From: an uncultured Verrucomicrobiae bacterium
GTDB taxonomy: Bacteria > Verrucomicrobiota > Verrucomicrobiia > Chthoniobacterales > UBA10450
Length of the DNA: 64,000 nucleotides
Reading direction: 5' to 3'
NCBI GenBank assembly: GCA_963726745.1
Contig: CAVSDR010000006.1
Location: forward strand, 384,001 to 448,000
Below the pieces are notes generated by a model. It made no database searches and was not told the DNA's origin. It saw nothing but the letters and a program-made list of their open reading frames with translations. Each line of letters starts with the position of its first letter. The first letter of the stretch is position 1. Shown here piece by piece: positions 515 to 63,627 of this stretch. The position numbers and the translations under genes were made by a program.

Positions 515-1630
515 CTACTTCTCCATCCCGAGATGCTGCCGCATCATCTGTTTTTGTTCGGAGCGCGCATAGGCTTCCTCGGCGGAAATCACTCCGGTGT
601 CGTAAAGATTGGCCAGCGCGTCATCCATTAATTGCATCCCGAGCTTCTTCCCGGTCTGGATGATGCCGGGAAGCATGTAGGTCTTGGCCTCGCGAATGAC
701 GTTGGCCACCGCCGGCGTGTTCGTGAGTGTCTCGAGCGCGAGCGCACGGCCGCTACCGTCCGCTTTCGGGACAAGTTGCTGGCTAATGATTCCACGCAGC
801 GATTCGCTCACCATGATGCGGATTTGCTCCTGCTGGTCGACCGGGAAGACGTCGAGCAAGCGGTCGAGCGTGCGCGAGGCGTTGCCGGTGTGGAGCGTGC
901 CGAGCACGAGGTGACCGGTTTCCGAGGCGGTAATAGCCAGCGAGATCGTCTCCAGGTCGCGCATTTCGCCGATCATGATCACGTCCGGATCTTCGCGGAG
1001 CGCGCCGCGCAGGGCCGCGCTGAACGAGGCCGTGTGCGTATGCACTTCGCGCTGGGTGATGTGGCAGCCTTTCGGCTGGAAGATGTATTCGATCGGGTCT
1101 TCCAGCGAGATGATGTGCTCATGGCGCTCGCGGTTCACCTGTTCCACGAGCGCAGCCAGCGTGGTCGACTTGCCACTGCCGACCGAGCCGGTGACGAGGA
1201 TGAGGCCGTTGTGAAAGCGAGTCAGCAGCTTCAGGTGCTCGGGCAATCCGAGCTCATCCATCGTCTTGACCTCGGTGTTGATGATCCGGAAGACGAGGTC
1301 GACTCCAAGTCGCTGCCTAACGACACTGGTGCGGAAGCGCCCGAACTCGGTCGCGTAGGCAAAATCGGCGTCGCCTTGCATCCCGAGGTGGGCCTTGTGG
1401 ACGTCCGGCAGGAAACCATCGGCGAGGGCGGCGGTCTCCTGCGCCGTCAGCCTGGGTGCGTCCGGCCAGATGGGACGGAGAATGCCTTGCATGCGCCAGA
1501 TCGGCGGCGCATTGACCCCGAGATGGATATCGGAAGCCCCGGCCTCCTGGCCAATCGCGAGATACTCGTCGACGTGCCGCAGGACATGGTGCGGAGTCTC
1601 AGCGGTGACTTCAACGGAAGCGGGTTCCAT
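515..1630 (-). CDS. pilT: PilT type IV pilus retraction ATPase
   Basis: ASDIHL, GSVGSGKSTT Walker A, EDPIE, ALREDPDVIMIGEMRD, GHLVLGTLH, GMQLMD. Start placed at ATG 1630 (MEPAS). Confidence 0.93.
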   Translation of the reverse strand: MEPASVEVTAETPHHVLRHVDEYLAIGQEAGASDIHLGVNAPPIWRMQGILRPIWPDAPRLTAQETAALADGFLPDVHKAHLGMQGDADFAYATEFGRFRTSVVRQRLGVDLVFRIINTEVKTMDELGLPEHLKLLTRFHNGLILVTGSVGSGKSTTLAALVEQVNRERHEHIISLEDPIEYIFQPKGCHITQREVHTHTASFSAALRGALREDPDVIMIGEMRDLETISLAITASETGHLVLGTLHTGNASRTLDRLLDVFPVDQQEQIRIMVSESLRGIISQQLVPKADGSGRALALETLTNTPAVANVIREAKTYMLPGIIQTGKKLGMQLMDDALANLYDTGVISAEEAYARSEQKQMMRQHLGMEK

Positions 1631-1716
1631 GCAGCAGGTGCGAAGTTCTTTCCCGCAGCCGCGAATGACAAGCCGGGAATGCGCGCGCGCCGCATTTCCC
1701 TGCCGGCCGCGCGCGG

Positions 1717-3322
1717 CTACTCGCACTCGCAGACGATGCGGAAGCCAACGTCGTTGCAGGAATAGCCGGGAAGATTTGAACCGCGCGCGGTCGTGCGCAG
1801 GCTGTTGAAGCGCGACTTCCAGCTGCCGCCACGGTAGACGCGCTTGGCCCCGGAGGTGGCGCCGCGCGGATTCACCCGCGGTGTCCCGCGATAGGTCTCG
1901 AAGAAATCGAGGCACCATTCCCAGACGTTGCCCGCCATGTCGTGCACCCCGAAAGGGCTGGCGCCGTTCGGAAACGCGCCCACGGGCGAGCTTTCGGCAA
2001 AGCCATCGTCGATCTCGCGATCGCTCCAGGCGAAGACGGTGTTCTTGTCGGCAAAATTCGCCAGGTCGCCCCGGCCGTCGTGCTGGCCCCACGGATAGCG
2101 GCGGCTGTCAGTCCCGCGCGCGGCAAATTCCCACTCGGCCTCCGTTGGCAGGCGGTATTTTTTGCGATCGCGCGCGCTCAGCCAGGAGCAGAATTTAATG
2201 GCCTCCAGGCTGCTGACATAGACGACCGGATGGCGATCGCCGGCGCCCGGGGCGCGCTTGCGGGCATGCGTCGGGTCGAAGACTTCATACTCCGCGTTGG
2301 TCACCGGAAACTTCGAGATGAAGAAGCGGCTCAACGTGACCTTCGAGAGCGGCCGCTCGTTCGGGCCAGCGTCGCGCCCTTCGCTACCCATGTGATACTC
2401 GCCGGAGGGGATGAAGAGCATGGGTCCGCCTAACGAGTTTACAAAAGGCGGAAACTCGGCGGCCGGGGCCGCTGCCGGGGCCGGCGCTACTTCCACCCGG
2501 TGCTCGACTGTCCGCGCCGCGGCGGCAGGAGCTGGCGGGGTGGGCGCGGGCGCGGAGGGTTTGTCGTCGTCATCCGACTGCCCGAGGTAGAGATCGACCA
2601 GGTCTTCGGCTTCCCCCGGGTCAATCCCGAGGTTTTCCGCCATGTTGATGAAGGCATCGCGCGTTTCATCGGTCATGCCGTCCTTGTCCAGATTGGTCAG
2701 CTGGAGCATGCGCATGAACTCCGCCTTCGGATCGCCACCGCGCGCCGGCCGGGAAGAGCGTGGGCGCGGAGGCGGCGTCGGAGCGACGGGGGCCGGCGCG
2801 GCTTCGGCGACCTTGCGGCGCGCGCCGCTTTCCTGCAGCTCGGCCTCGATGTAGCGCTCCATCTCCTCTGCGTTCAAGCCATGTTCGCGCCCGAAGCGAT
2901 GGAGATTGCGCTCCTCCTCCGGAGTCAGCACCCCGTCGGCCGTGGCAAAGGTCAGATACTTGTGAAACTCGGCCACGGCTTCGTCGTGCGCCTGGGCGGC
3001 CAGTTCCTGGTCGAGCTGCTGGCGGCGCGCGGGATCGAGCAGGCCGAGGCGTGCCTGCGGCGAGGTAGCGCGACGATTCGTCCAGCCCGGGCCGCAACAT
3101 TTGCGCGATCGGATTGCTCGGCTGGTTCTTCAGCGGAAGCTTTTTCTGCCACCAGCGCAGGAGCTCGCGGCAATGCCCTTCGATGACCTCGTTGGTGGGA
3201 TTTTGCCGCGGGTCGAGACAAAGGCGCTCATACAAGTTGGGCGACTTGTATTTGCTCCAGCCGTCCCATTTGTTGGGATCGTCCGGCAGCGGAATCGGAA
3301 AGAGAGACTTCACCGGAAGCAT
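1717..3322 (-). CDS. Multidomain protein: degenerate J-domain-like N-terminus, helical TerB-like segments, C-terminal FGE-sulfatase (SUMF1) domain; frameshift near 3058
   Basis: ORF 3322 (NLYERLCLDP...SSRYLA) joins by a 1-nt shift to QARLGLLDPARRQQLDQEL, which is in frame with ORF 1717..2976. C-terminus has FGE motifs RLPTEAEWEFAARG, FGVHDMAGNVWEWC, RGGSW, GFRIV. Confidence 0.85.
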
Positions 3323-3325
3323 CGC

Positions 3326-4888
3326 TTAGGAGACGCTCAGGGAAGCGAGTTCCGCCGCGGCTTCGGCCACCTCGTGCGGGAGGAGACCGGTGTTCCGTTC
3401 GATGGACATCTTGGTTTCTTCGCCGCAAATGAGGACCGCGATCTCGAGCACCTGGTTCTCGTTGTACTCGTAGTGCAGCTCCACCGGCGTGCCTTTGGGC
3501 AACAACGGCGGGAGATTGACCGCGCAGATGCCCAGCGGCGTGCACTCTGTCGGGAGGCTGCTCTCGCCCTCGACGATGCGCACGACCGCGCGCGACATGT
3601 TCGCATCGGCGGTGCCGAAGAAGTTGCGCGCGTTCGCCGGGATCGGGCTCATTTTCCGGATCATCGGAAAGACATACTCGGTCAGGAGGGTGTCGTCCCA
3701 GAGAACCACACCGAGAGTGTGCGAGGTGATGTTGTTCACCTGCATAAGCAAGCCGTCGCGGGAGGAAAATTGCTCGCGGGTGTCAGCCGGCAACATCTGT
3801 TCGCCCGAAGTTTCCTCCTCGCGCAGAAGCAGGAGGATGCCCTGGATGGCCGCGCCCACGGCGACCGCCTCATCGGGATTCACTTCATCGACCAAAGCCT
3901 GCGCCGAGAGGTCCTGCACGAGCGCGCGGACCATCGGCATGCGCGTCATGCCGCCGACCAGCAGCACTTTGTCGATTCCGGACCACTCGAGCCCGGCTTC
4001 GTTCAGGACAAGATCGCAGATCCCGCGGCAGCGCTCCACGAGATGCAAGGTCAAGCGTTCGAAGTCCTCTCGGGTGAGCTCGACCTTCAAGCTCTTGCCA
4101 TTGTAGCTGTGGACGATGGTCGTGCGGGCGCGGCTCGAAAGCTGGACCTTGGCTGCGAGCGCGCGGCTCTGCAGTTCCTGGTAGCTCTGCAGATCGAGCA
4201 AGGGATTCTCGCCATGCTCGCGATCGAACTCCTCGGCTACGTAATTGACGATCGCGTCGTCCCAATCTTTTCCGCCGAGGCGATGGTCGCCGTTGGTCGC
4301 GAGCATCTGGATGTTGTGCCCCTCGATCCGCATGAGGGTGACGTCAAAAGTGCCGCCGCCCAGGTCAAAGACGAACACCGTCTGGTCCTGGTCGAGCTTG
4401 TCGAGTCCGTAGGCCACCGCCGCCGCGGTCGGCTCGTTGATCACCTGGAGGACGTGGAAGCCGGCGAGCTGCCCGGCGGTGATCGTGGCCGTGCGCTCGG
4501 CGTCGTTGAAGTAAGCCGGGACGGTGATGACCACGTCGGTCACGTCTTCCTTCAGGTAGCGCTCGGCATCCGCTTTCAGCTTCTTCAGGATCAAGGCGGA
4601 AAGCTCTTCGGCGGAGTAGCGCTTGCGATCGAACTCGCGATGGAAATGCTCGCGCGACTTGCCCATCTCGCGCTTCACAAAATCGACGATCCGCTCCGGC
4701 TCGGCGACGGCGTTGTTCTTCGCCATTGTGCCGACGACTGCGGTCTCGCCCTCGAACAAAATCACGCTCGGAGTGATCCGCTCGCTTTCGCTATTCGGGA
4801 TGATCTGCGGTTTGCCGTAGGCGTCGATGTGCGCCATGGCCGAGAAGGTCGTGCCAAGGTCGATGCCGATTACTTTTCTGTGGGACAT
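3326..4888 (-). CDS. Hsp70-family protein (DnaK paralog lacking the C-terminal lid)
   Basis: GIDLGTT, TVPAYFND, INEPTAAA, FDLGGGTFDV, VGGMTRMP, NPDEAVAVGAA. Only 520 aa. Confidence 0.93.
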   Translation of the reverse strand: MSHRKVIGIDLGTTFSAMAHIDAYGKPQIIPNSESERITPSVILFEGETAVVGTMAKNNAVAEPERIVDFVKREMGKSREHFHREFDRKRYSAEELSALILKKLKADAERYLKEDVTDVVITVPAYFNDAERTATITAGQLAGFHVLQVINEPTAAAVAYGLDKLDQDQTVFVFDLGGGTFDVTLMRIEGHNIQMLATNGDHRLGGKDWDDAIVNYVAEEFDREHGENPLLDLQSYQELQSRALAAKVQLSSRARTTIVHSYNGKSLKVELTREDFERLTLHLVERCRGICDLVLNEAGLEWSGIDKVLLVGGMTRMPMVRALVQDLSAQALVDEVNPDEAVAVGAAIQGILLLLREEETSGEQMLPADTREQFSSRDGLLMQVNNITSHTLGVVLWDDTLLTEYVFPMIRKMSPIPANARNFFGTADANMSRAVVRIVEGESSLPTECTPLGICAVNLPPLLPKGTPVELHYEYNENQVLEIAVLICGEETKMSIERNTGLLPHEVAEAAAELASLSVS

Positions 4889-5027
4889 GGAGACAGGTTA
4901 GGAGATGGACCCGCCCTTCGTTTTTCTCGGAGCGTCGCCACCTAAAGTGCAGCTTTCGTGCCCACGGCGGAGAGGACTTTGCGCGACCGCGAGTTGCGCG
5001 GAAAAAAACTAGCCAGCCAGATGGCGG

Positions 5028-5744
5028 CTACGGGAAACGCTTCGCGATCACTTCCTCGGCGCGGAAAAGCTTCCCGTGCCAGAGAAACCCACGCTTCAAG
5101 CGCTGCACGATGCGGCCGTCTTCTTCGGCAAAATCCGCCAGCTCATAAGAAATGACTTTGTGCCAGCGACGGTCCACGCACTCCTGCGGCTCCAGCTCGC
5201 TCACCTCCACCCGATGCAGAATCTCCAGGAGCGCATCGACGGCGTGGCGGTGATTCTCAGCCCATTGGGCGGTTTGCGCGTTCGCATTTTCCACCCGCAA
5301 GAGCTGCGCGGAAAGCGCACTCATGTCGTCGTAAAGCGTGATCAGGTCGCGCAAAATCGGCTTTTGCAAGGTCTCGCGCATGAAGTCGTCGCGATAGCAC
5401 TTCAACTCTTCGTGCAGCGAATTGAAGAGGCGCTGATTTACGCTCTCGCCTTTCCGGGCCACTTCCAGCTGCGCCTCGATCCGGTCCAGCCGGTCGGCTA
5501 ATTGGTCGCTTCCTGCCGCCGGCGTCGGCGCGGCTACCTTCGCGAAGCCGTGCGCCATGGTCCGCGCGATCGCCGCCAGGGTTTGCTGCATTGCCTCGAG
5601 CCGATCTTCCTCCGGCGAAGCTTCTGCCAATGGTTGCGCGATTTTCGCCGGCGGCGCGCTCTTCGACGCTTCCGCCACGAGCTGCTGCATGGTGCTGGAA
5701 AACTCGTCCGAAAGTTCGATCTCGAGGGTCTCGATGTCGCTCAT
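5028..5744 (-). CDS. grpE: GrpE-like nucleotide exchange factor
   Basis: Coiled-coil N-terminal half, GrpE-type C-terminus (IVQRLKRGFLWHGKLFRAEEV), adjacent to Hsp70. Confidence 0.8.
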   Translation of the reverse strand: MSDIETLEIELSDEFSSTMQQLVAEASKSAPPAKIAQPLAEASPEEDRLEAMQQTLAAIARTMAHGFAKVAAPTPAAGSDQLADRLDRIEAQLEVARKGESVNQRLFNSLHEELKCYRDDFMRETLQKPILRDLITLYDDMSALSAQLLRVENANAQTAQWAENHRHAVDALLEILHRVEVSELEPQECVDRRWHKVISYELADFAEEDGRIVQRLKRGFLWHGKLFRAEEVIAKRFP

Positions 5745-5752
5745 GGTGCCGG

Positions 5753-7276
5753 CTATTTTTTCGGGGCGCGATAATGCCGGCTGATCGCCTCGACCAGTCC
5801 CGGGATGTCGTGTTTCCGTGCTTCCACCGCCACTTCCAGGCCGAGCTCGCGCGCCGTTTTCGAAGTTACTGGGCCGATGCTGGCGACTTGCATTCGCTCC
5901 GGCCAGGGAAGCTCCAGGGCCATGAAATTCTCCACCGTGGAAGAGCTGGTAAAAGTAATCAGGTCCGCGCCTTCCTCCACGAAACGACGGCGCGCGCCGT
6001 TATCATCGCGGGTCTCCGCAACGGTCCGGTAAGCGAACGCTTCATCAACGATGGCACCCATGGCTGTCAGTTCCTTGGGAAGCACGTCCCGCGCCTTCTC
6101 CGCCCGCGCCAGTAAAATGCGCAAGTTCTCCACCCCGCCTTGCTTCGCGAATTCCTTCACCACCGCCTCGGCCACGTATTCCTCCGGCTGAAGATCGACA
6201 TGGAGGCGGAAGTCCTTGATCCGCTGCGCGGTCGCCGGGCCGATCGCGGCGATCTTGGCGCCGCCGATTTCGCGCGCGTCGCTGTAGAGCTTGTAGAAGA
6301 GCTCGAAGAACGCGTTCACCCCGTTCGGGCTCGTGAAGATGATCCAGTCGTAGGCGTGCGCGTCCTGCACCAGCTCGGCAAAGGCGCGCAGGTCGCTTGG
6401 CGGTTCGATGCGAATGGTCGGAAGCTCGAGAACATCGGCCCCCAAGGCTTCGAGCTGTGCGCTCAGCACCCCGGCCTGGGTGCGCGTCCGCGTGACCACA
6501 ATCCGCTTCCCGGAAAGCGGACGGCCTTCGAACCAATTTAGCTTTTCGCGCAGCGCCACCACCTCGCCAAAGACCGCGACCGCCGGCGCTTCGAAACCTT
6601 CTGCCACCACCTTCCCGGCGATGTTTTCGACCGTGCCGGTGAGCGTTTGCTGCCGGCCAGTGGTAGCCCAGCGCACCAGCGCCACCGGCAGGTCCGGGCG
6701 CACGCCGTTCTCCAGGAACTCGCGCGTGATCGCGCCGATCCGCTCCACCCCCATCAGCATCACCTGCGTGCCGCCGAGTTTAGCCAGCGCGCTGAAGTCG
6801 ATCGAGCTCTCGGTTTTTTCCGGGTTCTCGTGCCCGGTGAAGAAGGTCACGTGCGAGTTGTTCCCGCGATGCGTGATCGGAATGCCCGCGTAAGCCGGAC
6901 CGGCGATCGCTGAGGTCACGCCCGGGACGATCTCGAACTCGAGCCCGGCTTCGGCCAGCGCGAGCGCTTCCTCCCCGCCGCGCCCGAAGACGAACGGATC
7001 GCCGCCCTTTAGCCTAACGACTCGTTTCCCGGCGCGCGTTTGCTCGACCAGCAGTTGGTTAATCCCCTCCTGCGAGAGCGTGTGCGCGCCGGCTTTTTTG
7101 CCCACGTAGATGCGCTCCGCATTTTCCGGAGCCCATTGCAGCATCGCCGGATTGCAGAGGTAATCGTAAACGATCACCTCGGCTTGCGTGATCAGTTGCT
7201 TCGCCCGGAGCGTGACCAGGCCGAGATCGCCCGGGCCCGCGCCCACGAGCGCACATTTGGTTGTTTTATCCGCCAT
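5753..7276 (-). CDS. cobA: Uroporphyrinogen-III C-methyltransferase / uroporphyrinogen-III synthase fusion (CobA-HemD)
   Basis: VGAGPGD, RLKGGDPFVFGRGGEE, VPGVTS, then a HemD domain (IVVTR, FTSPNGV, FTSSSTV). Confidence 0.95.
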   Translation of the reverse strand: MADKTTKCALVGAGPGDLGLVTLRAKQLITQAEVIVYDYLCNPAMLQWAPENAERIYVGKKAGAHTLSQEGINQLLVEQTRAGKRVVRLKGGDPFVFGRGGEEALALAEAGLEFEIVPGVTSAIAGPAYAGIPITHRGNNSHVTFFTGHENPEKTESSIDFSALAKLGGTQVMLMGVERIGAITREFLENGVRPDLPVALVRWATTGRQQTLTGTVENIAGKVVAEGFEAPAVAVFGEVVALREKLNWFEGRPLSGKRIVVTRTRTQAGVLSAQLEALGADVLELPTIRIEPPSDLRAFAELVQDAHAYDWIIFTSPNGVNAFFELFYKLYSDAREIGGAKIAAIGPATAQRIKDFRLHVDLQPEEYVAEAVVKEFAKQGGVENLRILLARAEKARDVLPKELTAMGAIVDEAFAYRTVAETRDDNGARRRFVEEGADLITFTSSSTVENFMALELPWPERMQVASIGPVTSKTARELGLEVAVEARKHDIPGLVEAISRHYRAPKK

Positions 7277-8184
7277 GATTCATTTGCTCCCAAAGTTTCG
7301 CCGCGAGCGCTTCCGGGTCGGGCGCGCCCGTGACCGCGCCCTGTCGCGGCGCGGTCTCGCCTTCATCAAAAATCTGCGCGCGCAGGGTCATGATCTCGCT
7401 GTCTAATTTTGCCAGCACGCCCACCGGCGTGCCGCAATCGCCCTGCAACCGCCGCAGGAACTCACGCTCCGCGTGGAGGCAAAGCAGGCTGGGCGCATGA
7501 TTCAGCGGCGCCAAGGACGCGCGCGTCTTTTCGTCCTCCGCGCGAATCTGGAGCGCGACAATCCCCTGCCCGCCCGCAGGCAAAAAGTCGTCCGCCGAAA
7601 GAATCGTCGTCCGGAAGCGCGCGCCCTCGAACTCGATCTCGCCGGCTGCGACCGGAAAGCCGAGCCGCTCGAGCCCGGCGCGCGCGAGCAGGATCGCGTC
7701 CCACGAGTTGCTGGCTAATTTCCGCAGCCGCGTGGGCACATTGCCACGCAAGCCGACGACCTCGAGCCCGGGACGCAGCCAGCGCAATTGATGCGCGCGC
7801 CGCACGCTCCCAGTCGCGATCACGCCGCGTGCCGGGAGTTCCGTCACGGATCTTCGCCACGAGCACATCCTCGAAGTTCGCCCGCGGAAGAGCCGCGGAA
7901 ATCATCAGGCCGTCGCTTCGCTCGCTCGGCAGATCCTTCGCGCTATGCACCGCGACATCGATCCCGCCCGCACGCAGCACCCGCTCGATCTCGGCGGTAA
8001 ACATGCCCTTCAAGCCGGCGTGCCGGTCGACCGGTTCTGGGCTGCGGCCACCGCGTTCGTCGCCGCTGGTGGTGATGATTTTGATTTCCACCTCCACGCC
8101 GTGCGCGCGCAATCCCGCCTCGACCATCGCCGCTTGCGCGCGCGCAAGATCGCTCCCGCGCGTGCCGAGAACAACGCGGCTCAC
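7266..8184 (-). CDS. hemC: Hydroxymethylbilane synthase (frameshift near 7852)
   Basis: GTRGSDLARAQ, KGMFTAEIE, AVHSAKDLP in one frame. ATGSVRR, RGNVPTRL, LARAGLERL, GDCGTPVG in the next. Confidence 0.92.
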
Positions 8185-9260
8185 GATTCGGACGCCCGCA
8201 ACGGCGCGTCGGGTAAAATGCGGTGCGGTTCCTCGCGCTGGCGGCGCACTTCCGTGCCATCCCGCCGCAGCCAGTCGCCGAAATCGGTCACGTGCTCGGC
8301 GATGATCGTCTCGCCCGCGGCGACCTGTTGCCGGCGCAGCGCCAGCGCCTGCTCCGCAACCGAGCGGAGCGAATCGATGTCGTAAAGGTAAACGCCCTCC
8401 ATCTCATTCACGTCGGGTGCAACGTCGCGCGGGACCGCGATGTCGATGATGAAAAGCGGCCGGTCCCAGCGCGGGCGGAGGATCGGGGCCAGCTTCGCCC
8501 GCGTGAGCAATGGCTCCTCGGAAGCAGTCGACGAGATCAGGATGTCGACCTCGCCGCATTCCTTTTCCCAGCCGGCAAACGGGACCGATCTTCCACCCAC
8601 GGCCGCGGCCAGGAGCTCAGCGCGTTCGCCTGAGCGATTGGTCACGCGCAGGTCGGAAACTCCGCGGGAAGCGAGCGCACGCGCGGTCCGCTCGCTGGTT
8701 TCGCCCGCACCGACCACCAGCACTTTGCGCGTGCGCAAGTCGCCGAAAATTTTGACAGCAAGATCGACTGCCACCGAGCCGACCGAGACCGCGCCGCGGG
8801 TGATCTCGGTGTGCGTGCGCACCTGCTTGGCCACGCGAAAGGCGCGCTGGAAAAGCCGATGCAAGACCGGCCCCGCGCCGCCGGAAGTGCGGGCCGCTTC
8901 ATACGCTTGCTTGGCCTGCCCGAGCACTTCGGTCTCGCCCACGACCATGGAGTCGAGCCCGGCGGCCACGCGGAAAAGATGCTGCACACAGGCCTCGGCC
9001 TCGTAGCGATAAAACGCGCTCCCGTCCTCGAATTCCTCCTCCGGCGCGGCCGCGCGCAGGCAGCGCGCGATCGTCTCGTTCGAGATCGTTTGCGGCGCGA
9101 CCGCGTAGACTTCCACGCGGTTGCAGGTGGAAAGCAGGAGCGCTTCGGCACAGCCGCTGCCTTCGCGCAGGGCGCGGTCGGCCTCGAGATTGCGCACGTA
9201 GCGCTCGCGCGTTTCCACCGGGGCGGTGTGATGGCTCAGGCCGACGCAGAAAAGATTCAT
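8181..9260 (-). CDS. hemA: Glutamyl-tRNA reductase
   Basis: LSTCNRVE, AGLDSMVVGETEVLGQ, VGAGE, DIAVPRD. Confidence 0.96.
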   Translation of the reverse strand: MNLFCVGLSHHTAPVETRERYVRNLEADRALREGSGCAEALLLSTCNRVEVYAVAPQTISNETIARCLRAAAPEEEFEDGSAFYRYEAEACVQHLFRVAAGLDSMVVGETEVLGQAKQAYEAARTSGGAGPVLHRLFQRAFRVAKQVRTHTEITRGAVSVGSVAVDLAVKIFGDLRTRKVLVVGAGETSERTARALASRGVSDLRVTNRSGERAELLAAAVGGRSVPFAGWEKECGEVDILISSTASEEPLLTRAKLAPILRPRWDRPLFIIDIAVPRDVAPDVNEMEGVYLYDIDSLRSVAEQALALRRQQVAAGETIIAEHVTDFGDWLRRDGTEVRRQREEPHRILPDAPLRASES

Positions 9261-9263
9261 TCG

Positions 9264-10055: not shown

Positions 10056-10112
10056 TTTGCGGACCCGAATTTACGGAGCGCAGCCTTCCGACGCAACCAA
10101 CGCGAGGTCGCG

Positions 10113-11510: not shown

Positions 11511-11595
11511 CGGAGTCAAGTGACCGCTCTGCGAAAGCAAGTCTGTGGCCGCCGGGCCGTTGACCTTTCCGGCGCAGCCGCTAGCGTCCGCCCAA

Positions 11596-53948: not shown

Positions 53949-53957
53949 ATCTTTTTC

Positions 53958-54106
53958 TCTGGGGAGCGCAGGCTGCCAGCCTGCAGTTTCCGGCAGCTTG
54001 CCGGAAACACCGCGCGACGCTCCCTCACCTCCCGAGCGACCGATGTCTCTCAGTGGTCGCGGCAAGGCTGCCGCGCCCGACAGGCTGGCAGCCTGTGCTC
54101 CCCAGA
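53958..54106. repeat. Composite REP/REPIN-like palindromic element between convergent genes
   Basis: 26-bp inverted arms TCTGGGGAGCGCAGGCTGCCAGCCTG (53958-53983) and CAGGCTGGCAGCCTGTGCTCCCCAGA (54081-54106), 1 mismatch. Internal hairpins at 53986-54008 and 54058-54075. Confidence 0.85.
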
Positions 54107-54118
54107 AAAGAGAGCCGC

Positions 54119-55876: not shown

Positions 55877-55987
55877 GGGACCGGGGAATCTAGATTTCCC
55901 GGTTTCGATTGCGAGGGAAACCGCAGCCGCTGCGCGTCCCGGCGGTTTGACCATGCCGACGCGAGGCGATACCCTCTCCCCAGCCCC

Positions 55988-56323
55988 ATGATCACCGTGA
56001 CCGACAACGCTGTGCAGCAATTGCGCGCGCTCCTGGCCGAACAGCCGGACGCGGCCGGCAAGGGCTTGCGCGTGCAGATTGCCAAGGGCGGCTGCTCCGG
56101 GATGCAATACGAGATGTCACTCGACTCGCACCGCGCGGGCGATGCGATTGTGGCGCGCGACGGGGTGGAGTTTTTTGTGGATCATGAGAGCGCCCAGCTG
56201 CTGCGTGGAGCGGTGCTCGATTATCACGACGGCCTGACCGGCGCTGGCTTTCATTTCGAGAACCCGAACGCCGCCCGCACCTGTGGTTGCGGCACCTCGT
56301 TCGAACCCGCACGCCCGGCCTAA
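55988..56323 (+). CDS. A-type Fe-S cluster assembly protein (HesB/IscA/ErpA)
   Basis: GGCSGMQY, NPNAARTCGCGTSF. Confidence 0.95.
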   Translation: MITVTDNAVQQLRALLAEQPDAAGKGLRVQIAKGGCSGMQYEMSLDSHRAGDAIVARDGVEFFVDHESAQLLRGAVLDYHDGLTGAGFHFENPNAARTCGCGTSFEPARPA

Positions 56324-56361
56324 CGAACGCCTGAGCCCGCGCTCGCTCCCCACGCGTTTCG

Positions 56362-57768
56362 ATGGATCACACGCTTTTTCGTTACGACGAGCCCTACGGC
56401 CGAGGCCGGCGCAAAGGCAATCCGTTCGCCTGGACGATTGCGATCCTTCTGCTCATCGGCCTGGCCTTCGCCACCTGGCTGAGCAGTCTCTACATCTTCA
56501 GCCAGCCGGAACGGCCGGACAGCTACCGCATCCTGCAGAAACTGCACAAGCTCGAGCAGCCAAAACGCTTCCAGCTGACCGCCGCGCCTGCCGGCGAATT
56601 CCTGAGCCCAAAGCAATTGCACGAGCGCTACGGCAAGCTCGGCCCGGCGGAGCTCGCGCGCACCAACGCGGAGCTCATCCGCAATTACATCCGCAACTAC
56701 TCGGCGGTGCGGGGCGCGGTCCCGTATGTGGTCGGCCGCTTCACGATCATGGAAGCGCGCGAGCTCGGGCCTAACGACCTCTTCACCACCGGCATGGTCG
56801 CGCTCGGCGGCGCGGTCGATTACGGCGAGGTCTTGCTCGAGCACGTCTACCCCGCGGATGCGCAGTCAGTCCCGCTGATGCAGGAAACGCTGGCAACCGG
56901 CCTGGAGATGAAGCTTGAGCGCGCGCACGACCTTTCCGCGATTATCCATGCGGAACATCTTTCGGATGGCCGGCTTCTGCTGACGGCGGTGCCGCTGCTC
57001 TACGGCAGTTACACGGTCACACAGGGCCGCGGAATGTTCAGCCTCGAGCCGCCCTACGACCTGAACATGGCCGCCGGCTGGCCGATCTTCAAAAGCGAAG
57101 GACGCCGCGCGGCGGAGGCAAAATTCGCCAGCTACCGCGAACGCTACGCGCCCGCCGTGCCGGGAATCAGCATTCCGGGCGTGGGCCCTAGTGCTACTCC
57201 CGTGGCCACGAACGAACTCGTGCGCGTGGAAACCGCCGTCCCGGTGCAGACGCCGACCGCGGCACCGCTCCTTGCGAAGAGCGACAAGGCCGTGAAAGCC
57301 ACGCCCACGCCAGCACCGGCCGCGAAGACGGCGAAGCCCGAAGAGGCATTGCCCGCGCTCCCGGTGAAGCCGGACACCGCGCTCGCTTCCACGGCCGGCG
57401 GCGGCACGTGGAAAACCTATCCTGCCGGCAAAATGCCCGCCGGCCGCCTCATCACCACGAGCGATCTCGGCGACGTGGCCGAGCGCGGTCTCGCGGGCGA
57501 ACGCGTTTACCTGCGCGGCCAATTCGTCGTCAATTTCGCCGAGGGCAACCGCGCCGTCCTCCGTCCGAAGAGCAACATGGCGGAATCGGTGCTGCACCTC
57601 GGCGCCCCCTCCTCCACCCGCATCGTGGTCGAGTTTCCCGCCGGCCATACGCCGCCGGCTCCCGGTTCCACGGTCACGCGGGATCAGGCGCAGCCCTACG
57701 AGATTACCGAAGTGCGCAAGCAGAGCGACGGGCAGTTGAACGTTTTCGTGCGCGAGATCATGCAGTAG
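56362..57768 (+). CDS. Membrane-anchored hypothetical protein with two similar beta-rich domains and a Pro/Ala/Thr linker
   Basis: N-terminal TM, 468-aa ORF with host-like codon usage, internal similarity visible by eye. Confidence 0.75.
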   Translation: MDHTLFRYDEPYGRGRRKGNPFAWTIAILLLIGLAFATWLSSLYIFSQPERPDSYRILQKLHKLEQPKRFQLTAAPAGEFLSPKQLHERYGKLGPAELARTNAELIRNYIRNYSAVRGAVPYVVGRFTIMEARELGPNDLFTTGMVALGGAVDYGEVLLEHVYPADAQSVPLMQETLATGLEMKLERAHDLSAIIHAEHLSDGRLLLTAVPLLYGSYTVTQGRGMFSLEPPYDLNMAAGWPIFKSEGRRAAEAKFASYRERYAPAVPGISIPGVGPSATPVATNELVRVETAVPVQTPTAAPLLAKSDKAVKATPTPAPAAKTAKPEEALPALPVKPDTALASTAGGGTWKTYPAGKMPAGRLITTSDLGDVAERGLAGERVYLRGQFVVNFAEGNRAVLRPKSNMAESVLHLGAPSSTRIVVEFPAGHTPPAPGSTVTRDQAQPYEITEVRKQSDGQLNVFVREIMQ

Positions 57769-57798
57769 CGCGGTCCGGCCAAGACCGGCGACAACTCG

Positions 57799-58509
57799 TT
57801 AGCCGCGCGTCTCGCCGATGACCCGCTCGCCTTCGATCCGGAAGACGGCCACATCGTTGTCGTCCAGCCATTGGCCGATCATCGAGCGGATCGTCGACCA
57901 GCCAAAAAGCCGCCGATCGAGAAATTCCGCCGGGACCGATTGGTCGCCGATCTTGAGGTCGAAAATCTCTGCGCGGGTGGGATCGCCATCCGCAGCCGAG
58001 CGCACCGAAGCCTCGCCGTTGAGATAACGGCCGCCCATGAAAATGATGTTTTTGAGCGGAATGCTCACCTGCACGTGGCCGACGCCGTTGGCCACCGTGA
58101 CAAAGGCTTTCCCGCGCGTGTTTCGGCTGCCCGCGAGCAGGGCGTTGATCTCGTTAGCCGACAACTCGATCCGCGCTTTCTCATGGCGACGCGCCGCTTT
58201 CTCAAATGCTTTCCAGCGTCGCTCGACCGGCTCGACCGGCACCGGGAGCGCCGGCAAGGGCGCGGCGTTTCCGTTGGGCAGCGCCGGCGTGGGCGATGGC
58301 GCAGGCAGCGCCACGCTGTTCTCGGAGAACTCCGGCAACACCAGCGGCTCGGTGGAGGAATAGTTCTGCCGCACATGATGCAGCGCCCAGAAGGCGCCGC
58401 CGACAAACGCGACCGCGAGGAAAAGGAAAAAGCCGATGAAGGCAAGGCAACCAATGCCGAGACAACCGGTGCCGGCGCGAGGTGGAGGGGGAACGGTCTG
58501 GGTATTCAT
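57799..58509 (-). CDS. Hypothetical single-pass membrane protein
   Basis: GCLGIGCL plus TM helix, Pro-rich linker, LSANEINALL. Confidence 0.7.
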   Translation of the reverse strand: MNTQTVPPPPRAGTGCLGIGCLAFIGFFLFLAVAFVGGAFWALHHVRQNYSSTEPLVLPEFSENSVALPAPSPTPALPNGNAAPLPALPVPVEPVERRWKAFEKAARRHEKARIELSANEINALLAGSRNTRGKAFVTVANGVGHVQVSIPLKNIIFMGGRYLNGEASVRSAADGDPTRAEIFDLKIGDQSVPAEFLDRRLFGWSTIRSMIGQWLDDNDVAVFRIEGERVIGETRG

Positions 58510-59000
58510 GAGGGATTCGGGAGGCTGGCCTGCGCCGCGAGGAGTTTGGCATACAAGCTCTCCAAGCCTTCCGAGAGCAGGCGCGTGCCGCTGAGCACCG
58601 GCATAAAATTGGTGTCGCCATTCCAGCGCGGGACGATGTGCAGATGGAGGTGATCGGGCACGCCCGCGCCGGCGCAGCTCCCGAGGTTCAGCCCGATGTT
58701 AAAGCCTTGCGCCTGCATCGTCGCGCGCAAGAGCCGCTGCCCGTGCATCGCCAGGCTCCAGAGCTCGAGCACTTCGTTTTCGCCTAACGAGTCCGCGTCC
58801 GCGGTCTTCCGATACGGCACCGCCATCAGGTGGCCGACCGCATACGGGTAGCGGTTCATCATCAGGAAAGCGTTCTTCCGCCGCGTGAGCACAAGGTGCG
58901 CGGCATCGTCGCTCGCGCGCGCCGCCGTGCTTAGGAAGTCCGGGTCGGCCTTTTCCTTTTCGAAATACTCCACCCGCCACGGGCACCAGAGCGTTTCAAT
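58506..59000 (-). CDS. HIT-domain protein (Ap4A phosphorylase-like)
   Basis: LWCPWR, NRYPYAVGHLM, GFNIGLNLG, HLHLHIVPRW. Start ATT 59000 or TTG 59033. Confidence 0.9.
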   Translation of the reverse strand: METLWCPWRVEYFEKEKADPDFLSTAARASDDAAHLVLTRRKNAFLMMNRYPYAVGHLMAVPYRKTADADSLGENEVLELWSLAMHGQRLLRATMQAQGFNIGLNLGSCAGAGVPDHLHLHIVPRWNGDTNFMPVLSGTRLLSEGLESLYAKLLAAQASLPNPS

Positions 59001-59068
59001 CTCGGCCTTGGGAAAATTTTGCGCGTCGCTCAAAGCAGGGAAACGATTCCCGCGCCCGCAGGCAAAGT

Positions 59069-60478
59069 CTAATGGTTCCGCTGCAGGAGCCGGTAACGCC
59101 GCGGCCGACCGTTGACCGTGATCTCGCCGGCTAATTCCGAGGCGCGCGCTTCCGGCAAGGCCGCGAGCAGGCCTGCGATTTCCTCCTCCGGCGCGACCAG
59201 CGCGTCGATCTCGCCGCGGCGCCAGCGCGTGAGCGCGTCGTCTGTTTTCATGAATTGCGTTCGCCGCAGATAAAGCAGCAGGCCTTCCTCTTTCCCGCCG
59301 ATGACTTCGTAGCGCTCCGTCCGCGCGCGCACATTTTCGGAGAAACGCACCAGGGCGCCGTCGTCGTGCCGGTAGCTCACGATGATTTTTTGCGCGGCGT
59401 ATCCGCCGGTGAAAATGCCGGCTAAAACCAGCGCCCAGATGCTCCAGCGGCGTGCGCGCGCATCGGTCCAGGCCGCGAGCAGCAGGCAAAGCGGCGGCAG
59501 CACCGGGAAAATCCGATCGACCCGCTTCGACGGAATCAGCGACATCACCAGCAAACCGCCAAGGCTCCAGCAGACCAGCCAGCAAACTTCCGGCGAAAAC
59601 TTTTCCCGCCGACGCCACCACGCCAGCGCGAGCAGGAGCACGCTCCAGGGCGCGAACTTGTGCAGGAGATGCGGCAGGTAAAAATAGAACGGCTGCGGGC
59701 GGTGGACGGTCTCGCCGAAACGGCCGGCAAATTCCCGCAGCACCACCTGCTCGTAGAAGCCCGGCATCCACGCGATCCCGCCGGCAGCCCAGAGCAGGAA
59801 GACGGCGAGCGAAGCGAGCCACGGCCACCAACCGCACCATGCGCTCGTCTGCGGCGCGCGTTTCCGCGCCCAGAGTTGATAGGCGACAATCCCCGGCAGG
59901 AGAAAGGCGTAGACGATCGGGCCCTTGATCAACATCGAGGCCGTAAGCAGGGCAAAAATCAGCCAGCGATCTCCGCGCGACCAGGGCTCCGCGGCCGCGA
60001 TTTTGCGCCAGATCACCAGCCCGAGCGCAAAGATCACCAGCGCCAGCGGCATGTCCGTGCGCACCAGCGTGGCCAGCCGCGGCGCGAGCAAGTTTAAGCC
60101 AAAAGCCGCGAGCGCGAGCAGCGCCGCGAGCGCGCCGTAACGCTCCCGCGCCGCGCGCCAAAGCAAAATAGCCAGCAAGATGGCGGCGGTGAACGAAGGC
60201 AACCGCCAGGCCAGCGTCCACGAGCGCGTGACCGCATGGAGCCCGGCCGAGATCCAGCCGACCAGCGGCGGCTTGGTCGCGATCTTGCCGTTGGGCGTGT
60301 GCTGGTAAAACCAGTGGCCCGCTTCGGTCATCTCAAAGGAGGTAAAGGCCTGCTTCGCCTGGTCGTAATCGTCCAGCGTCCAGGGCAGATTCGTTAGGCT
60401 AAAAAGAAGCGCGAGCAACAGCGCCACCGCCACCAGCGGCCCGCGGCGCTCGAGCAAGTCGCCGTCTATTCCTGCCAT
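59069..60478 (-). CDS. ArnT/PMT-family (GT-C) glycosyltransferase
   Basis: KPPL, WRLPS, RTDM, LIKGP, YFYL, SKRVDRIFP, multi-TM. Confidence 0.85.
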   Translation of the reverse strand: MAGIDGDLLERRGPLVAVALLLALLFSLTNLPWTLDDYDQAKQAFTSFEMTEAGHWFYQHTPNGKIATKPPLVGWISAGLHAVTRSWTLAWRLPSFTAAILLAILLWRAARERYGALAALLALAAFGLNLLAPRLATLVRTDMPLALVIFALGLVIWRKIAAAEPWSRGDRWLIFALLTASMLIKGPIVYAFLLPGIVAYQLWARKRAPQTSAWCGWWPWLASLAVFLLWAAGGIAWMPGFYEQVVLREFAGRFGETVHRPQPFYFYLPHLLHKFAPWSVLLLALAWWRRREKFSPEVCWLVCWSLGGLLVMSLIPSKRVDRIFPVLPPLCLLLAAWTDARARRWSIWALVLAGIFTGGYAAQKIIVSYRHDDGALVRFSENVRARTERYEVIGGKEEGLLLYLRRTQFMKTDDALTRWRRGEIDALVAPEEEIAGLLAALPEARASELAGEITVNGRPRRYRLLQRNH

Positions 60479-61110
60479 AGAATCGCGCGCACCGGCGAGC
60501 CGTCGCCGCCCGCGATCTTCAGCGGCAGCGCCGAGAGGCGATAGCGCCCGGCCGCGACCGCGCGCAGGTCTAGCGACTCCAGAATTGCGATCCCCGCAGC
60601 ACCGAGCGCGTGATGATTAGGCAGCGACTTGGAGGTGATCTCATCGACCGAAGGGACGTCAAACCCGAGCAATTGCACGCCCCGCGCCTGCAGCCATGCC
60701 GGCACTTCCGGCGCGATCGTCGGGATCGCCTCCGGAAAAACTTCCGAGTCGGTCCAGACGTTCGTCTTCAGGAGCAAACGCGGGATCGTCCGCAGCTCCT
60801 CGCTCCAGGCCGCGAGATCGTCGACCGTGATTTGCGGAAGCTCGCCGCCGGAATATTTAGCCGACAAATCGGCCACGATCACCGGCCCGAGATAAACCTC
60901 CAATCGCGCCTGCTCGATCGTCCAGCCATCGTCCTCGAAATGGAAACGCGCGTCCGCGTGGGTCCCGTTGTGCAGGCTCTGGGTGATCATCCCGACGTTC
61001 ACGCTCGAGCCGGTGGCGATGGTGCCGTTGAGCTTGAACTCGAAGCCGACGTCGCCTGGCCAGGGCGCGAGCTTCTGCGTGAGCGTGCGGGAAACGTCGA
61101 AGATTTTCAT
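60466..61110 (-). CDS. kynB: Cyclase-family metal hydrolase (kynurenine formamidase-like)
   Basis: PWPGD, HNGTHADARFH, GFDVPSVD, ILESL, ALPLKIAGGDGSPVRA. Confidence 0.78.
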   Translation of the reverse strand: MKIFDVSRTLTQKLAPWPGDVGFEFKLNGTIATGSSVNVGMITQSLHNGTHADARFHFEDDGWTIEQARLEVYLGPVIVADLSAKYSGGELPQITVDDLAAWSEELRTIPRLLLKTNVWTDSEVFPEAIPTIAPEVPAWLQARGVQLLGFDVPSVDEITSKSLPNHHALGAAGIAILESLDLRAVAAGRYRLSALPLKIAGGDGSPVRAILWQE

Positions 61111-61168
61111 GCGGCGTGAGCTTCCAGCTTGCGCAGCAAAAGAAGCAGGCGCAATCCTCCACCTGAGC

Positions 61169-62182
61169 ATGGACGACCGGATCGCACGACTGCACGCCGG
61201 CGGCGTGATCGATCTGCACTTCGATCTGCCGCTCGGGCTTTTCCTCGAGCAACCGCGCCGCGGCCTCATCGCATCCGATTTTCTCCCGCAGTTCGAAGCG
61301 GGCGGTCTGCATTTGCTCGGCCTCGCGCTCTACATCGAGGACAAGCATCTCGGCGAAGCGCTGCGCGTGGCGCTCGACCAGGTGGCGCTCCTGCTCGAGG
61401 AAATCGCGCAGACTCCGCAGCTCCAGCTTTGCCGGTCCTTTGCCGACATCTCGCCGGCTAAAATCAACCTCCTCCTGACCATGGAAGGCGCCGAGCCGCT
61501 CGGTGCACGACCTGCATCTCTTGCGCGTTTTTCACGAGCTGGGATTGCGCGCGCTTTCGCTCACGCACGTGCGCGCGAATGCGGCCGCGGCCGGCGGAGT
61601 CTTCGCCGCCAGCGGCTCGCCGGCAACCGGCCTAACGAGTTTCGGGCGCGAGCTGGTGCAGGAATGCGAGCGGCTCGGGATCATCCTCGACCTGGCGCAC
61701 ATCAACCCCGCCGGCTTCGAGGAAATCTGCGCGCTGACCCGCAAGCCGCTGATCGTCTCGCACAGCAACGCGCGCCGCTTTTACGACATCGAGCGCAACC
61801 TGAGCGACGAGCAAATCCGGATGATCGGCGCGCGCGGCGGCGTCATCGGGGTCAACGCCATCCTCACCAGCGGCACGAAAGCGGAGGCCACGCTCGACCG
61901 TTACGTCGATCACCTCGAGCACATCATTGACCTGATCGGGATTGATCGGCGTCGGGATCGGTTTCGATTTCTGCGAGTTCCTCTGGAAGCTGCTGCCCGC
62001 GGAGGAACTCGCGGCGATGGAGGCAAAACTCACGCGCCCGCATTTCCTGCCCGACCTGACGCACCACGCGCAGGCCGCAAACTTGACGCGGCGAAGCTGA
62101 TCGAGCGCGGCTTCACCGAAGCGAGCAGATCGAAAAAATTTTGCGCGGGAATTGGCTGCGCGTTCTGCGGGAATTGTTATGA
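61169..62182 (+). CDS. Membrane dipeptidase (peptidase M19) with several frameshifts (near 61505, 61945, 62090-62130)
   Basis: IDLHFD, TMEGAEP, then LTH, DLAH, SHSN, RNLSDEQI, GIGFDF, KILRGNWLRVL across frames. Confidence 0.8.
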
Positions 62183-63627
62183 CCACGATCGACGAATTTC
62201 ATCGGCGGAGAGTTCGTCGCGGCCGATCGGCGGGAAATATCTCGACAACATCGAGCCTGCGACCGGCACAGCCCTATTCGCAGGTGCCGGACAGCGAGGC
62301 GCGCGACGTCGAGGCGGCGGTGGCCGCGGCGGAGAAAGCGTTCGCCAGCTGGTCGAAAACGCCCGCCGCGGAGCGCTCGCAAATCATCCTGCGCATCGTC
62401 GATTTGATCGAGCGCGACCTGGAGAAACTCGCCCGCGCCGAGTCGATCGACACCGGCAAGCCGCTCACCCTCGCGCGCACTCTCGACATCCCGCGCGCGG
62501 CCTCGAATTTTCGCTTCTTCGCGACCGCGATCCTGCACACGGAAAACGAAGCGCACGTAACCGACGGCCTCGCCTTCAACTACACCCTGCGCCAGCCACG
62601 CGGGATTTGCGGGCTGATCTCGCCCTGGAATTTGCCGCTCTATTTGTTGAGCTGGAAGATCGCGCCCGCGATCGCCTGCGGGAATACCGCGGTCGCGAAA
62701 CCGAGCGAACTCACGCCGATGACCGCCTTTCTCCTCTGCGAGATCTGCCGCGAGGCTGGCCTGCCCGCCGGCGTGCTCAACATCGTCCACGGCACCGGCC
62801 CGAAGGTCGGGCAGGCGATCACGGCGCATCCGAAGATCGGCACCATCTCTTTCACCGGCGGGACGCTTACCGGACGCAGAGTCGCGGAGACCTGCGCGCC
62901 GATGTTCAAGAAAGTGTCGCTGGAACTTGGCGGCAAAAATCCCAACATCATCTTCGCCGACGCCGACCTCGAGGCGGCGCTCAACGGCAGCCTGCGCTCC
63001 TCTTTTGCGAACCAAGGGCAGGTTTGCCTCTGCGGTTCGCGCGTGTTTGTGGAGCGACCGATCTACCAGGATTTCGTCCAGCGCTTCGTGGAAAAAGCCG
63101 GCCGCTTGAAATTAGGCGACCCTTTGGAAACGACGACCGACCAGGGCGCGATCGTTTCGCAGACCCAGCTCGAGAAGGTGAAGTTTTACGTCGAGCTGGC
63201 GCAGCAGGAAGGCGGGACGATCGCGCTCGGTGGCCACGCCCCGGCTCCGCCTAACGAACGCTGCGCCGACGGTTATTTCTTCCCGCCCACGATCATCACC
63301 GATCTCCCGGTCGGCTGCCGGACGAACCGCGAGGAGATCTTCGGCCCGGTGATTTCGGTTACGCCATTCGACCGCGAGGACGAAGTCGTCGGCTATGCAA
63401 ACGACAACGAATACGGCCTGGCCGCGAGCGTCTGGACGCAAAACCTCAACCGCGCTCACCGCGTGGCCGAGCAAATCCAGACCGGCACCGTCTGGGTGAA
63501 CTGCTGGCTCCTGCGCGACCTGCGCGTCCCCTTCGGCGGGATGAAACAAAGCGGCGTCGGCCGCGAAGGCGGCAACGAAGCGCTTCACTTTTTCACCGAG
63601 CCGAAGAATATTTGCATCGCCCGTTAG
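62179..63627 (+). CDS. Aldehyde dehydrogenase, 2-aminomuconate/2-hydroxymuconate semialdehyde dehydrogenase family (compensating indels near 62190-62270)
   Basis: ISPWNLPL, AKPSE, FTGG, LELGGKN, NQGQVCLCGSR, EEIFGPV, RDLRVPFGG. An alternate frame gives GGKYLDNIEPATG near the N-terminus. Confidence 0.88.
   Translation: MTTIDEFHRRRVRRGRSAGNISTTSSLRPAQPYSQVPDSEARDVEAAVAAAEKAFASWSKTPAAERSQIILRIVDLIERDLEKLARAESIDTGKPLTLARTLDIPRAASNFRFFATAILHTENEAHVTDGLAFNYTLRQPRGICGLISPWNLPLYLLSWKIAPAIACGNTAVAKPSELTPMTAFLLCEICREAGLPAGVLNIVHGTGPKVGQAITAHPKIGTISFTGGTLTGRRVAETCAPMFKKVSLELGGKNPNIIFADADLEAALNGSLRSSFANQGQVCLCGSRVFVERPIYQDFVQRFVEKAGRLKLGDPLETTTDQGAIVSQTQLEKVKFYVELAQQEGGTIALGGHAPAPPNERCADGYFFPPTIITDLPVGCRTNREEIFGPVISVTPFDREDEVVGYANDNEYGLAASVWTQNLNRAHRVAEQIQTGTVWVNCWLLRDLRVPFGGMKQSGVGREGGNEALHFFTEPKNICIAR

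Follow-up and report, generated by a model that had tools for sequence, protein, structure and literature searches.

A family-wide DNA word stacked with a second, independent word in an uncultured Verrucomicrobiae genome

In a 64,000-nt stretch of DNA from an uncultured Verrucomicrobiae bacterium of the Chthoniobacterales family UBA10450 (contig CAVSDR010000006.1 of assembly GCA_963726745.1, positions 384,001 to 448,000; hereafter the window), we found that a short DNA word, GCCTAACGAG (word A), is a real, family-wide tag that is independent of the encoded proteins, and that in this genome it is stacked with a second, independent tag (word B). Word A was counted as the 8-mer CCTAACGA, its 9-mer extension GCCTAACGA and its core CTAACGAG, in the source assembly (G000; 3.41 Mb on 7 contigs) and in further genomes and loci, which carry G and L numbers, respectively. 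The best explanation that we can offer, held at a confidence a little short of even, is molecular drive, in which the uptake or recombination of DNA would be biased towards certain sequences through several stacked readers.

Word A is over-represented in the window and across the genome

Exact matching located 28 copies of CCTAACGA in the window between 1316 and 63257, 17 on the + strand (starting at 1316, 2429, 7013, 13003, 13665, 16059, 18057, 20033, 27440, 29730, 39729, 55011, 56319, 56770, 58783, 61631 and 63250) and 11 on the - strand (9261, 14593, 18858, 21180, 24586, 26651, 29283, 53096, 53793, 55540 and 60391). Dinucleotide shuffles of the window gave an expectation of 0.8 ± 0.9, and none of 100 shuffles reached 28. 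Twenty-three of the 28 copies extended to GCCTAACGA, and eight further CTAACGA cores carried a different 5' base (22787+, 29851-, 32704+, 34104+, 41299-, 57796-, 58151- and 63822-, spanning 22787..63828). The original prediction, made from the letters of the window, had listed the same copies, strands, extensions and additional 7-mers, all of which were recovered.

Its reading of two conserved contexts also held. The + strand copy at 16059..16066 forces CTA-ACG (Leu-Thr) within the SCLTNKY motif of a GlyA domain (gene 15352-17157), and the + strand copy at 7013..7020, antisense within the CobA gene (5753-7276, - strand), forces GTT-AGG (Val-Arg). The - strand copy at 9261..9268 is the source of the TAA stop of a ccsB-like gene, and stop codons likewise come from word A at 56319+, 29851-, 34104+ and 57796-. 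Our tally of 11 sense, 12 antisense and 3 intergenic copies, with 2 on a stop codon, differed from the 15 vs 13 reported before, while agreeing that there is no strand preference.

Word A was not confined to the window. All 7 contigs of G000 carried the 8-mer, at 3.5-6.3 copies per 10 kb on each, for a total of 1,514 (790 forward and 724 reverse, 1 per 2.2 kb). This is 28-40 times the order-3/2 Markov expectation, and the word ranked first among all 8-mers under both order-2 and order-3 models. Genes were called with our own hexamer caller (3,092 genes) on an assembly rich in frameshift errors (46 of 237 orthologues tested). Within called genes we observed 1,112 copies, compared with 43.1 ± 6.2 in 20 within-gene synonymous shuffles and 109.1 ± 9.2 in 10 dicodon-aware shuffles, an enrichment of 10-26x over the two codon-aware nulls, the dicodon-aware null itself taking up some of the signal. 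By placement, 1,106 of the 1,514 copies were coding (in four frames), 223 intergenic and 185 at gene ends. The description "usually one per gene" proved overstated: CTAACGA occurred in 1,169 of the 3,092 called genes, with exactly one copy in 856.

Word A is constrained as DNA and tolerated as protein

The genome-wide profile of word A was YYY-G-C-CTAACGA-G-T-S-S-W. Its core was nearly all-or-none, with single-base variants at or below expectation at most core positions; the exception was position 8, where the change from G to A was seen 104 times vs 16 expected. The words reshape coding through TTA codons, 798 + 864 of 2,910 of which lie inside them, and through stops, with 184 of 912 TAA and 126 of 1,096 TAG codons (310 in total) lying inside word A genome-wide. 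Compared with low-A relatives, the tripeptides SLG (7.75 vs 4.82 per 10,000), PNE (2.57 vs 1.39) and LTN (2.26 vs 1.18) were raised 1.6-1.9x in G000, and residues at word sites were less conserved (0.60 vs 0.71).

Word A density was 0.42 per kb in the most codon-atypical decile of genes vs ~0.64, no site was found in the 16S gene or in tRNA/tmRNA genes (0/50), and long A-free gaps coincided with low-GC polysaccharide and surface-protein regions. Among metagenome contig pairs of 84-92% identity, which are non-independent and mostly of A-poor lineages, 44 of 65 differing sites differed by a single base, like the background. Of 385 sites, 20 were close to an alignment gap vs 3% at random. From these comparisons word A appears to arise by point mutation, not by insertion. 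The earlier proposal that selection acts on the DNA rather than on the protein was thus borne out by the codon-aware enrichment, the lack of polarity (see below), the sparseness in atypical genes and the raised tripeptides, together with the probable origin by point mutation.

A second word in the same genome and a third in other genera

Mixture modelling of all CTA-centred windows of G000 yielded two components of similar size, the second of which was word B, with the consensus SAWSTYGCYGGCTAATTY. Defining a strong site by a position weight matrix (PWM) score of at least 15, we counted 2,734 strong B sites in coding sequence vs 163 in shuffles, and 3,375 genome-wide. The window held 58 of them on both strands, spanning 285..63126, and the reversed window held 0; the strongest start at 772+, 929-, 5742+, 7392+, 7704+, 8747-, 11364-, 14569-, 17410-, 25107-, 26089+, 28977-, 32321-, 50467-, 51466-, 52948-, 59120+, 60164- and 61447+. 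The original prediction had seen word A alone and missed this commoner word, hence the presence of two independent words. After masking A and B, de novo discovery returned no further strong word in G000.

Word B consists of an asymmetric middle of 7 bp flanked by inverted arms (SAWNTY / AAWTTS). Its profile is graded and position-specific, with two invariant middle positions and others that take any base, a pattern that would be typical of read-out by a protein. We considered whether the inverted arms mark a deposited recombinase overlap sequence and set this aside, as the invariant and free middle positions fit read-out, not decay. The B pattern was abundant in just 2 of 251 family genomes, with 860 copies in G000 and 357 in G036, followed by 62 in G015, 59 in G011 and at most 37 in the other 247. 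A de novo search of 100 kb of G036 recovered a variant of B built in the same way; the presence of B in a second genus comes from G036, which is unpublished, and other unpublished genomes were used in tallies alone.

A third word, WTGTCGATCTT (word C), was obtained from G064, G063 and metagenome contigs and marks other genera. By hand count it reached at least 500 copies in 46 of the 251 genomes. The maximum is 4,514, in G056, where A numbers 2,255; in G000 word C occurs 17 times. The reversed form of C includes the rare CTAG, and its counts are too low to serve as a control. Words A and C occur together in G056, G080 and G098. Bearers of C include G035, G056, G080, G098, G114 and ~40 more genomes as well as the loci L436 and L489, and in translation the word gives KID and VDL peptides. 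De novo searches of G002, G003, G005 and G053, over 100 kb of each genome, returned no strong word.

Each word avoids itself and is indifferent to the other

We compared pair spacings in bins of 15-50, 50-100, 100-200 and 200-300 bp. The pair ratios were 0.27, 0.24, 0.62 and 0.70 for A-A pairs and 0.33, 0.59, 0.65 and 0.81 for B-B pairs, compared with 1.45, 1.22, 1.17 and 1.23 for A-B pairs and 1.04, 0.97, 0.95 and 0.88 for the control word GAAAGCG (1,813 copies). Self-avoidance therefore reached ~300-400 bp for A against A and B against B, with A and B indifferent to each other. The A deficit persisted inside genes (6 vs 30, 15 vs 40 and 45 vs 71) and was equal for same-strand, convergent and divergent pairs. 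No helical periodicity was detected, the sole periodicity being that of codons, and there was no fixed A-B offset apart from shared cores. Self-avoidance without cross-avoidance indicates that one copy per few hundred bases suffices and that the benefits of A and B are not interchangeable; two separate readers, acting in series or independently, would be the simplest account.

The strands were balanced, with 572 copies on the G-rich strand vs 616 on the other. Together with spacing that is independent of orientation, this spoke against the Chi-like option of the original prediction. In 100-kb bins there was no gradient of A between origin and terminus of replication, and A-free gaps of 10-25 kb occur.

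Word A spans a family and recurs in a second phylum

The 9-mer was present at 138-2,291 copies in all 18 congeners drawn; members of 12 other families in the order had 1-19. Across 251 family genomes in 36 genera, copies of the 8-mer ranged 290-fold, from 19 (G053) to 5,526 (G200); by hand count, ~60 of the 251 had at least 1,000 and 11 had fewer than 100. Family UBA10450 presumably holds Ca. Udaeobacter, among the most abundant of soil bacteria, an assignment we make through its 16S sequence. Among 120 matches listed in a two-copy scan of GTDB genomes, 97 were labelled Chthoniobacterales, Spartobacteria, Verrucomicrobiae or Verrucomicrobiota.

In orthologues of ~70% nucleotide identity, sampled over ~100 kb per genome, A-rich relatives shared the site position in 8/22, 7/17, 8/14, 7/21 and 5/20 cases against a background of 0.12-0.19, whereas A-poor relatives shared none (0/37 in G053, 0/22 in G002 and 0/24 in G036). 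No pair of family genomes exceeded ~84% identity over long stretches. The near-complete G053 (loci L048, L074-L077 and L350), with 19 A copies, an intact IntI, ComEC and pilins, is a natural negative control.

Gemmatimonadota accounted for 15 of the 120 matches listed in the same scan. GCCTAACGA reached 1,283-3,882 copies in 3 of 5 Gemmatimonadota genomes vs 32-80 for controls. GCCTAACG had at least 500 copies, and up to 7,821, in 17 of 221 Gemmatimonadales, most of which had fewer than 100. The word in this order reads yGCCTAACG(A/C) and lies within genes in several frames.

The core of word A is the crossover core of integron att sites

In motif-poor genomes the word occurs in same-strand clusters, which are arrays of integron attC attachment sites ending in CGTTAGGC. 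G000 itself has an attC array (C6:736,300-744,900) and smaller clusters, all ending CTCGTTAGRY, and arrays of this kind are found in six other family genomes. The C6 array comprises ~17 attC sites, each 117-127 nt long, and lacks an intact integrase gene (intI); the smaller clusters lie on C2, C3 and C4. An intI fragment adjoins attC at C2:58,739; otherwise G000 has XerC and XerD. Upstream of intI a site was located at 11 of 30 loci, all 11 reading CTCG|TTAG; by position these would be attI sites. The 42 attC ends collected read RYCTAACGAGA. The core CTAACGAG is thus the crossover core of the family's attC and attI-like sites, so that the earlier statement that the motif matches nothing known was wrong in this one respect. 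The integron core consensus is GTTRRRY/RYYYAAC, a form that our literature search did not confirm. A search for a dif-like pattern gave nothing convincing.

Att sites with the same end are also present in genomes that lack the dispersed word (G053 and G265), which indicates that the att core is the wider-spread feature. The dispersed A sites are, on sequence grounds, distinct from att sites. They are single and lack a hairpin partner, and all except 12 of the 1,514 8-mers stand outside attC clusters, in ordinary genes. The 5' side of att sites is R-Y (A 45%/G 52%, then C 50%/T 50%), whereas genomic sites prefer G-C (GCCTAACGA 1,312, GTCT 80, ACCT 52 and ATCT 7). At position +9, A occupies 93% of attC ends, while T occupies 44% of genomic sites. 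IntI as an on/off switch of word A was rejected, as its presence does not follow copy number: it was found in 20/25 A-rich vs 15/25 A-poor family genomes and in 11/12 vs 11/13 Gemmatimonadales, and motif-free G053 has an intact intI while G000 has a fragment alone.

Other features of the window

A gene for a PilT/PilU-family pilus retraction ATPase (515..1630, - strand; TIGR01420 above cut-off) holds the A copy at 1316 as well as B sites; such an ATPase belongs to the apparatus that DNA uptake would require. A polysaccharide gene island (36700..50400, GC 0.58) contains only 2 CTAACGA cores and 0 strong B sites over 13.7 kb. The gene at 15352-17157 fuses a low-molecular-weight phosphatase-like domain to the N terminus of GlyA, and a triad of GrpE-like, short Hsp70 and formylglycine-generating enzyme (FGE)-domain genes occupies 1717-5744. 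The hemC gene (7266-7847) looks shortened; pseudogene calls are unreliable in this assembly.

Discussion

We tentatively explain the words by molecular drive. They would be binding sites, probably read by proteins, whose copy number has been raised as in the DNA uptake sequence (DUS) and the uptake signal sequence (USS). Word-bearing fragments would be taken up, or would survive and recombine, more often than word-free homologous fragments, and word-creating point mutations would spread until damage to the protein halts them. One copy per fragment would be enough, so a second within ~300 bp would gain little, that distance probably reflecting the length of a fragment or recombination tract. 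Unlike Neisseria and Haemophilus, the lineage would stack readers, that of A family-wide with variable strength, that of B sporadic and that of C proper to a group of genera; acting at separate steps or independently, the readers would make A and B no substitutes for each other. Published hallmarks of USS and DUS are that they arise by point mutation, are thin in acquired DNA and in rRNA, and raise the tripeptides that they encode (PMC7811141; PMC2817400). Word A has the same features, including thinness in structural RNA genes, which favours drive, and the resemblance to a DUS/USS-type distribution noted in the original prediction was supported.

Parts of the machinery for uptake are present: ComEC was found in 30/31 and 79/80 genomes, and G000 has DprA, PilT, PilA-like pilins and several minor-pilin cassettes. 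Pilins were evaluated as readers in five genomes and yielded no candidate, none being exclusive to B-bearing genomes or missing solely from motif-free G053, and in Gemmatimonadales the pilin search matched generic GspG-like proteins only. In 164 kb of G036 (~7% of the genome), no unusually close gene pair with G000 was seen. The sole ComEA-like protein, of ~300 aa (L189, L205 and related loci), joins a secreted staphylococcal-nuclease-like domain to a ComEA-type helix-hairpin-helix (HhH).

Several results weigh against drive through uptake. ComEC does not separate genomes with words from those without, and no word reader was found among pilins, ComP_DUS, ComEA-like proteins, ComEC, methyltransferases and IntI. 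Pilin repertoires are alike in G000, motif-rich G013, B-bearing G036 and G015, and motif-free G053. ComP_DUS (PF16732) matched above cut-off in none of 5 genomes, with two weak matches, and the predicted fold (predicted local distance difference test, pLDDT, 92.9) of an orthologue of the weakly matching orphan pilin appeared closest to EpsG/PulG, of GspG/PulG type (Z 7.6 and 6.8), with ComP at Z 3.5; this pilin may still have a role despite its weak ComP_DUS score. The nuclease-HhH protein occurs in 21/25 A-rich vs 11/25 A-poor genomes and in 5/13 of the C-rich genomes searched. The G000 nuclease gene (C4:17,230-17,907) lacks the HhH end, an isolated HhH fragment being found at C2:230,178; given the frequency of frameshifted orthologues in this assembly, little weight attaches to any one broken gene. 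Terminator pairs of A are rare (of 1,507 neighbours, 10 form opposed pairs less than 100 bp apart), and in small samples self-avoidance was weak or absent in G263 (94 sites in 60 kb) and short-range deficit was little or none for word C (105 gaps). Single-base variants of USS are over-represented, unlike the core variants of A. Our literature search found no report of transformation in family UBA10450.

A rather unlikely alternative places the readers inside the cell, where cytoplasmic proteins would attach to A and B, whether in the chromosome or in DNA entering the cell, and protect or organise ~300 bp around each site. Such proteins might shield DNA from a nuclease or mobile element, load recombination proteins or coat the nucleoid, with sites fixed by weak selection or by drive in very large soil populations. 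This would account for stacked independent words, for spacing that ignores orientation, for the patchy ComEA-like gene and for the lack of a matching pilin, and the inverted arms of B around an asymmetric middle are such as a dimeric protein might read. However, the A-free gaps of 10-25 kb argue against a strict immunity mark, there is no gradient between origin and terminus, copy number varies 290-fold, G053 lives without a strong word (100 kb examined), and no candidate protein was identified.

A bolder form of drive, which we judge unlikely, would have the A reader evolve for integron att cores in soil DNA, harvesting cassettes by transformation, with the genome-wide word as a by-product. 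The system would be modular, with at least three unrelated words that can combine in one genome, each with its own reader, and a shared target or a transferred reader gene would explain the word in Gemmatimonadaceae.

That integrons themselves gave rise to A, the integrase making or selecting sites as footprints of cassettes entering and leaving chromosomal attG sites, as decoys or as entry points for allele exchange that it initiates, seems to us quite improbable. The shared core at all 11 attI-like sites and 42 attC ends fits this idea. The motif and the att sites both carry GAG in the family and are both looser there in Gemmatimonadales, and the weak T at +12 and G at +14 in the A flank (z +22 and +5) equal invariant attI positions. 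Integrases also insert cassettes genome-wide without strand bias, as reported in a preprint (10.1101/2022.09.11.507474). Against it, IntI does not follow A, the 5' ends and position +9 differ between dispersed and att sites, attC clusters contain few of the 8-mers, close contigs differ mostly by single bases rather than by blocks, and words B and C are left unexplained.

A methylation-linked mark of the highly iterated palindrome (HIP1) type, in which an orphan methyltransferase and mismatch repair create and keep the word, has little chance of being right. The model has been proposed for HIP1 (PMC4390886), and MutL is located in the window. The methyltransferases of G000 are three type I HsdM pieces, one cytosine-5 (C5) enzyme close to the end of a contig and an orphan enzyme of the beta class with an SPPY motif (C3:981,293-982,042; L078:17861-18607). 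The orphan enzyme is ~70% identical in 52/52 family genomes, and searches of 12 other families in the order did not find it; its outer limit is that of A. As an on/off switch it fails, for it does not follow copy number: it is present alike at 19 and 5,526 A copies, hence in motif-free G053, and a search with this query did not find it in 5/5 motif-rich Gemmatimonadales. The words are moreover non-palindromic with graded flanks, their self-avoidance would be unexplained, and assembly frameshifts are not concentrated at them (0/63 within 12 nt of A and 1/63 of B). The option of a methylation mark raised in the original prediction is accordingly weak. GTAC (0.16 of expected) and CTAG (0.28) are strongly avoided in G000. 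GTAC is low in further families of the order too, and this depletion was dropped as a clue to a methyltransferase switch, being seen in other families.

We see similarly slim prospects for another vehicle, such as a gene-transfer agent, a generalized transducing phage or a conjugative system that starts at the word. Any sequence-biased transfer among kin should yield the same drive, but the exclusion acts over 300 bp, much less DNA than a phage head packages. A two-copy viral scan gave 15 loci, mostly chance matches or repeats; one of them, L333 (an IMG/VR contig of 20.5 kb), has 15 CTAACGA cores and 8 GCCTAACGA, a host-like density over 20 kb. A polar translocase signal resembling Chi or the FtsK-orienting polar sequences (KOPS) is scarcely credible, because, although word A is non-palindromic and abundant, its strands are balanced and opposed pairs are depleted like same-strand pairs. 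A codon-usage effect or a sequencing or polishing artefact can practically be dismissed: G000 is frameshift-rich and independent confirmation of B comes mainly from G036, but A exceeds codon-aware nulls, is abundant in many independent assemblies and keeps its position in orthologues at 70% nucleotide identity, and a de novo search of G036 found a B-type word again.

If drive by biased uptake is true, the words would reveal DNA sorting by uncultured bacteria, offer a handle for transforming them and link transformation to cassette capture. Because A, B and C are distributed so patchily, their readers can be sought directly by comparing the presence and absence of genes with that of the words.

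Comparison with known systems

A literature search that left supplements and most subscription papers outside its reach did not find CCTAACGA, TCGTTAGG, GCCTAACGAG or CTCGTTAGGC as whole words, and it brought up no account of a comparable word from Verrucomicrobia or Gemmatimonadota. Chi and KOPS are likewise abundant, non-palindromic, octamer-size words read by proteins, but A lacks replichore polarity and orientation-dependent spacing. HIP1 and the exceptional HIPs of cyanobacteria share with our words the thousands of genic copies and the sporadic replacement of one word by another in scattered lineages; they are palindromic and tied to methyltransferases (PMC4390886), whereas A, B and C are non-palindromic and no cognate enzyme was found to follow them. 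Integron att sites (10.1101/2022.09.11.507474, PMC12614218) have in common with word A the core CTAACGAG, which is invariant in the attC ends and attI-like sites of the family; dispersed A sites differ in being single, in lacking a hairpin partner, in having G-C where att has R-Y and in their independence of IntI.

The closest likeness is to DUS and USS. Word A is a non-palindromic word of 9-12 nt that occurs about once per 1-2 kb on both strands, mostly within genes in tolerated frames, with raised tripeptides, a probable origin by point mutation, a strict core and graded flanks, and it is sparse in acquired DNA and structural RNA genes. The DUS of Neisseriaceae is read by ComP and the USS of Pasteurellaceae has ComN/PpdA as its predicted reader (PMC2817400, PMC7811141, PMC3630211, 10.1101/2025.10.24.684340, 10.1101/2025.06.16.659825), and about half of DNA uptake enhancing sequences (DUES) lie in terminators (10.1101/2025.10.24.684340). 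By contrast, A forms no terminator pairs, a ComP-like reader was not found, G000 carries two unrelated words rather than dialects around one core, and A occurs in two phyla with the integron att core as its core. We do not file it as DUS or USS because two membership features differ, namely terminator pairs and a single tag per lineage. In these papers, uptake tags belong to two host-associated proteobacterial families; here the same signature runs throughout a soil Verrucomicrobia family. It comes with three features that the same papers do not describe for DUS and USS: several independent tags are stacked in one genome, one tag is common to two phyla, and its core is identical to that at which integrons cross over.

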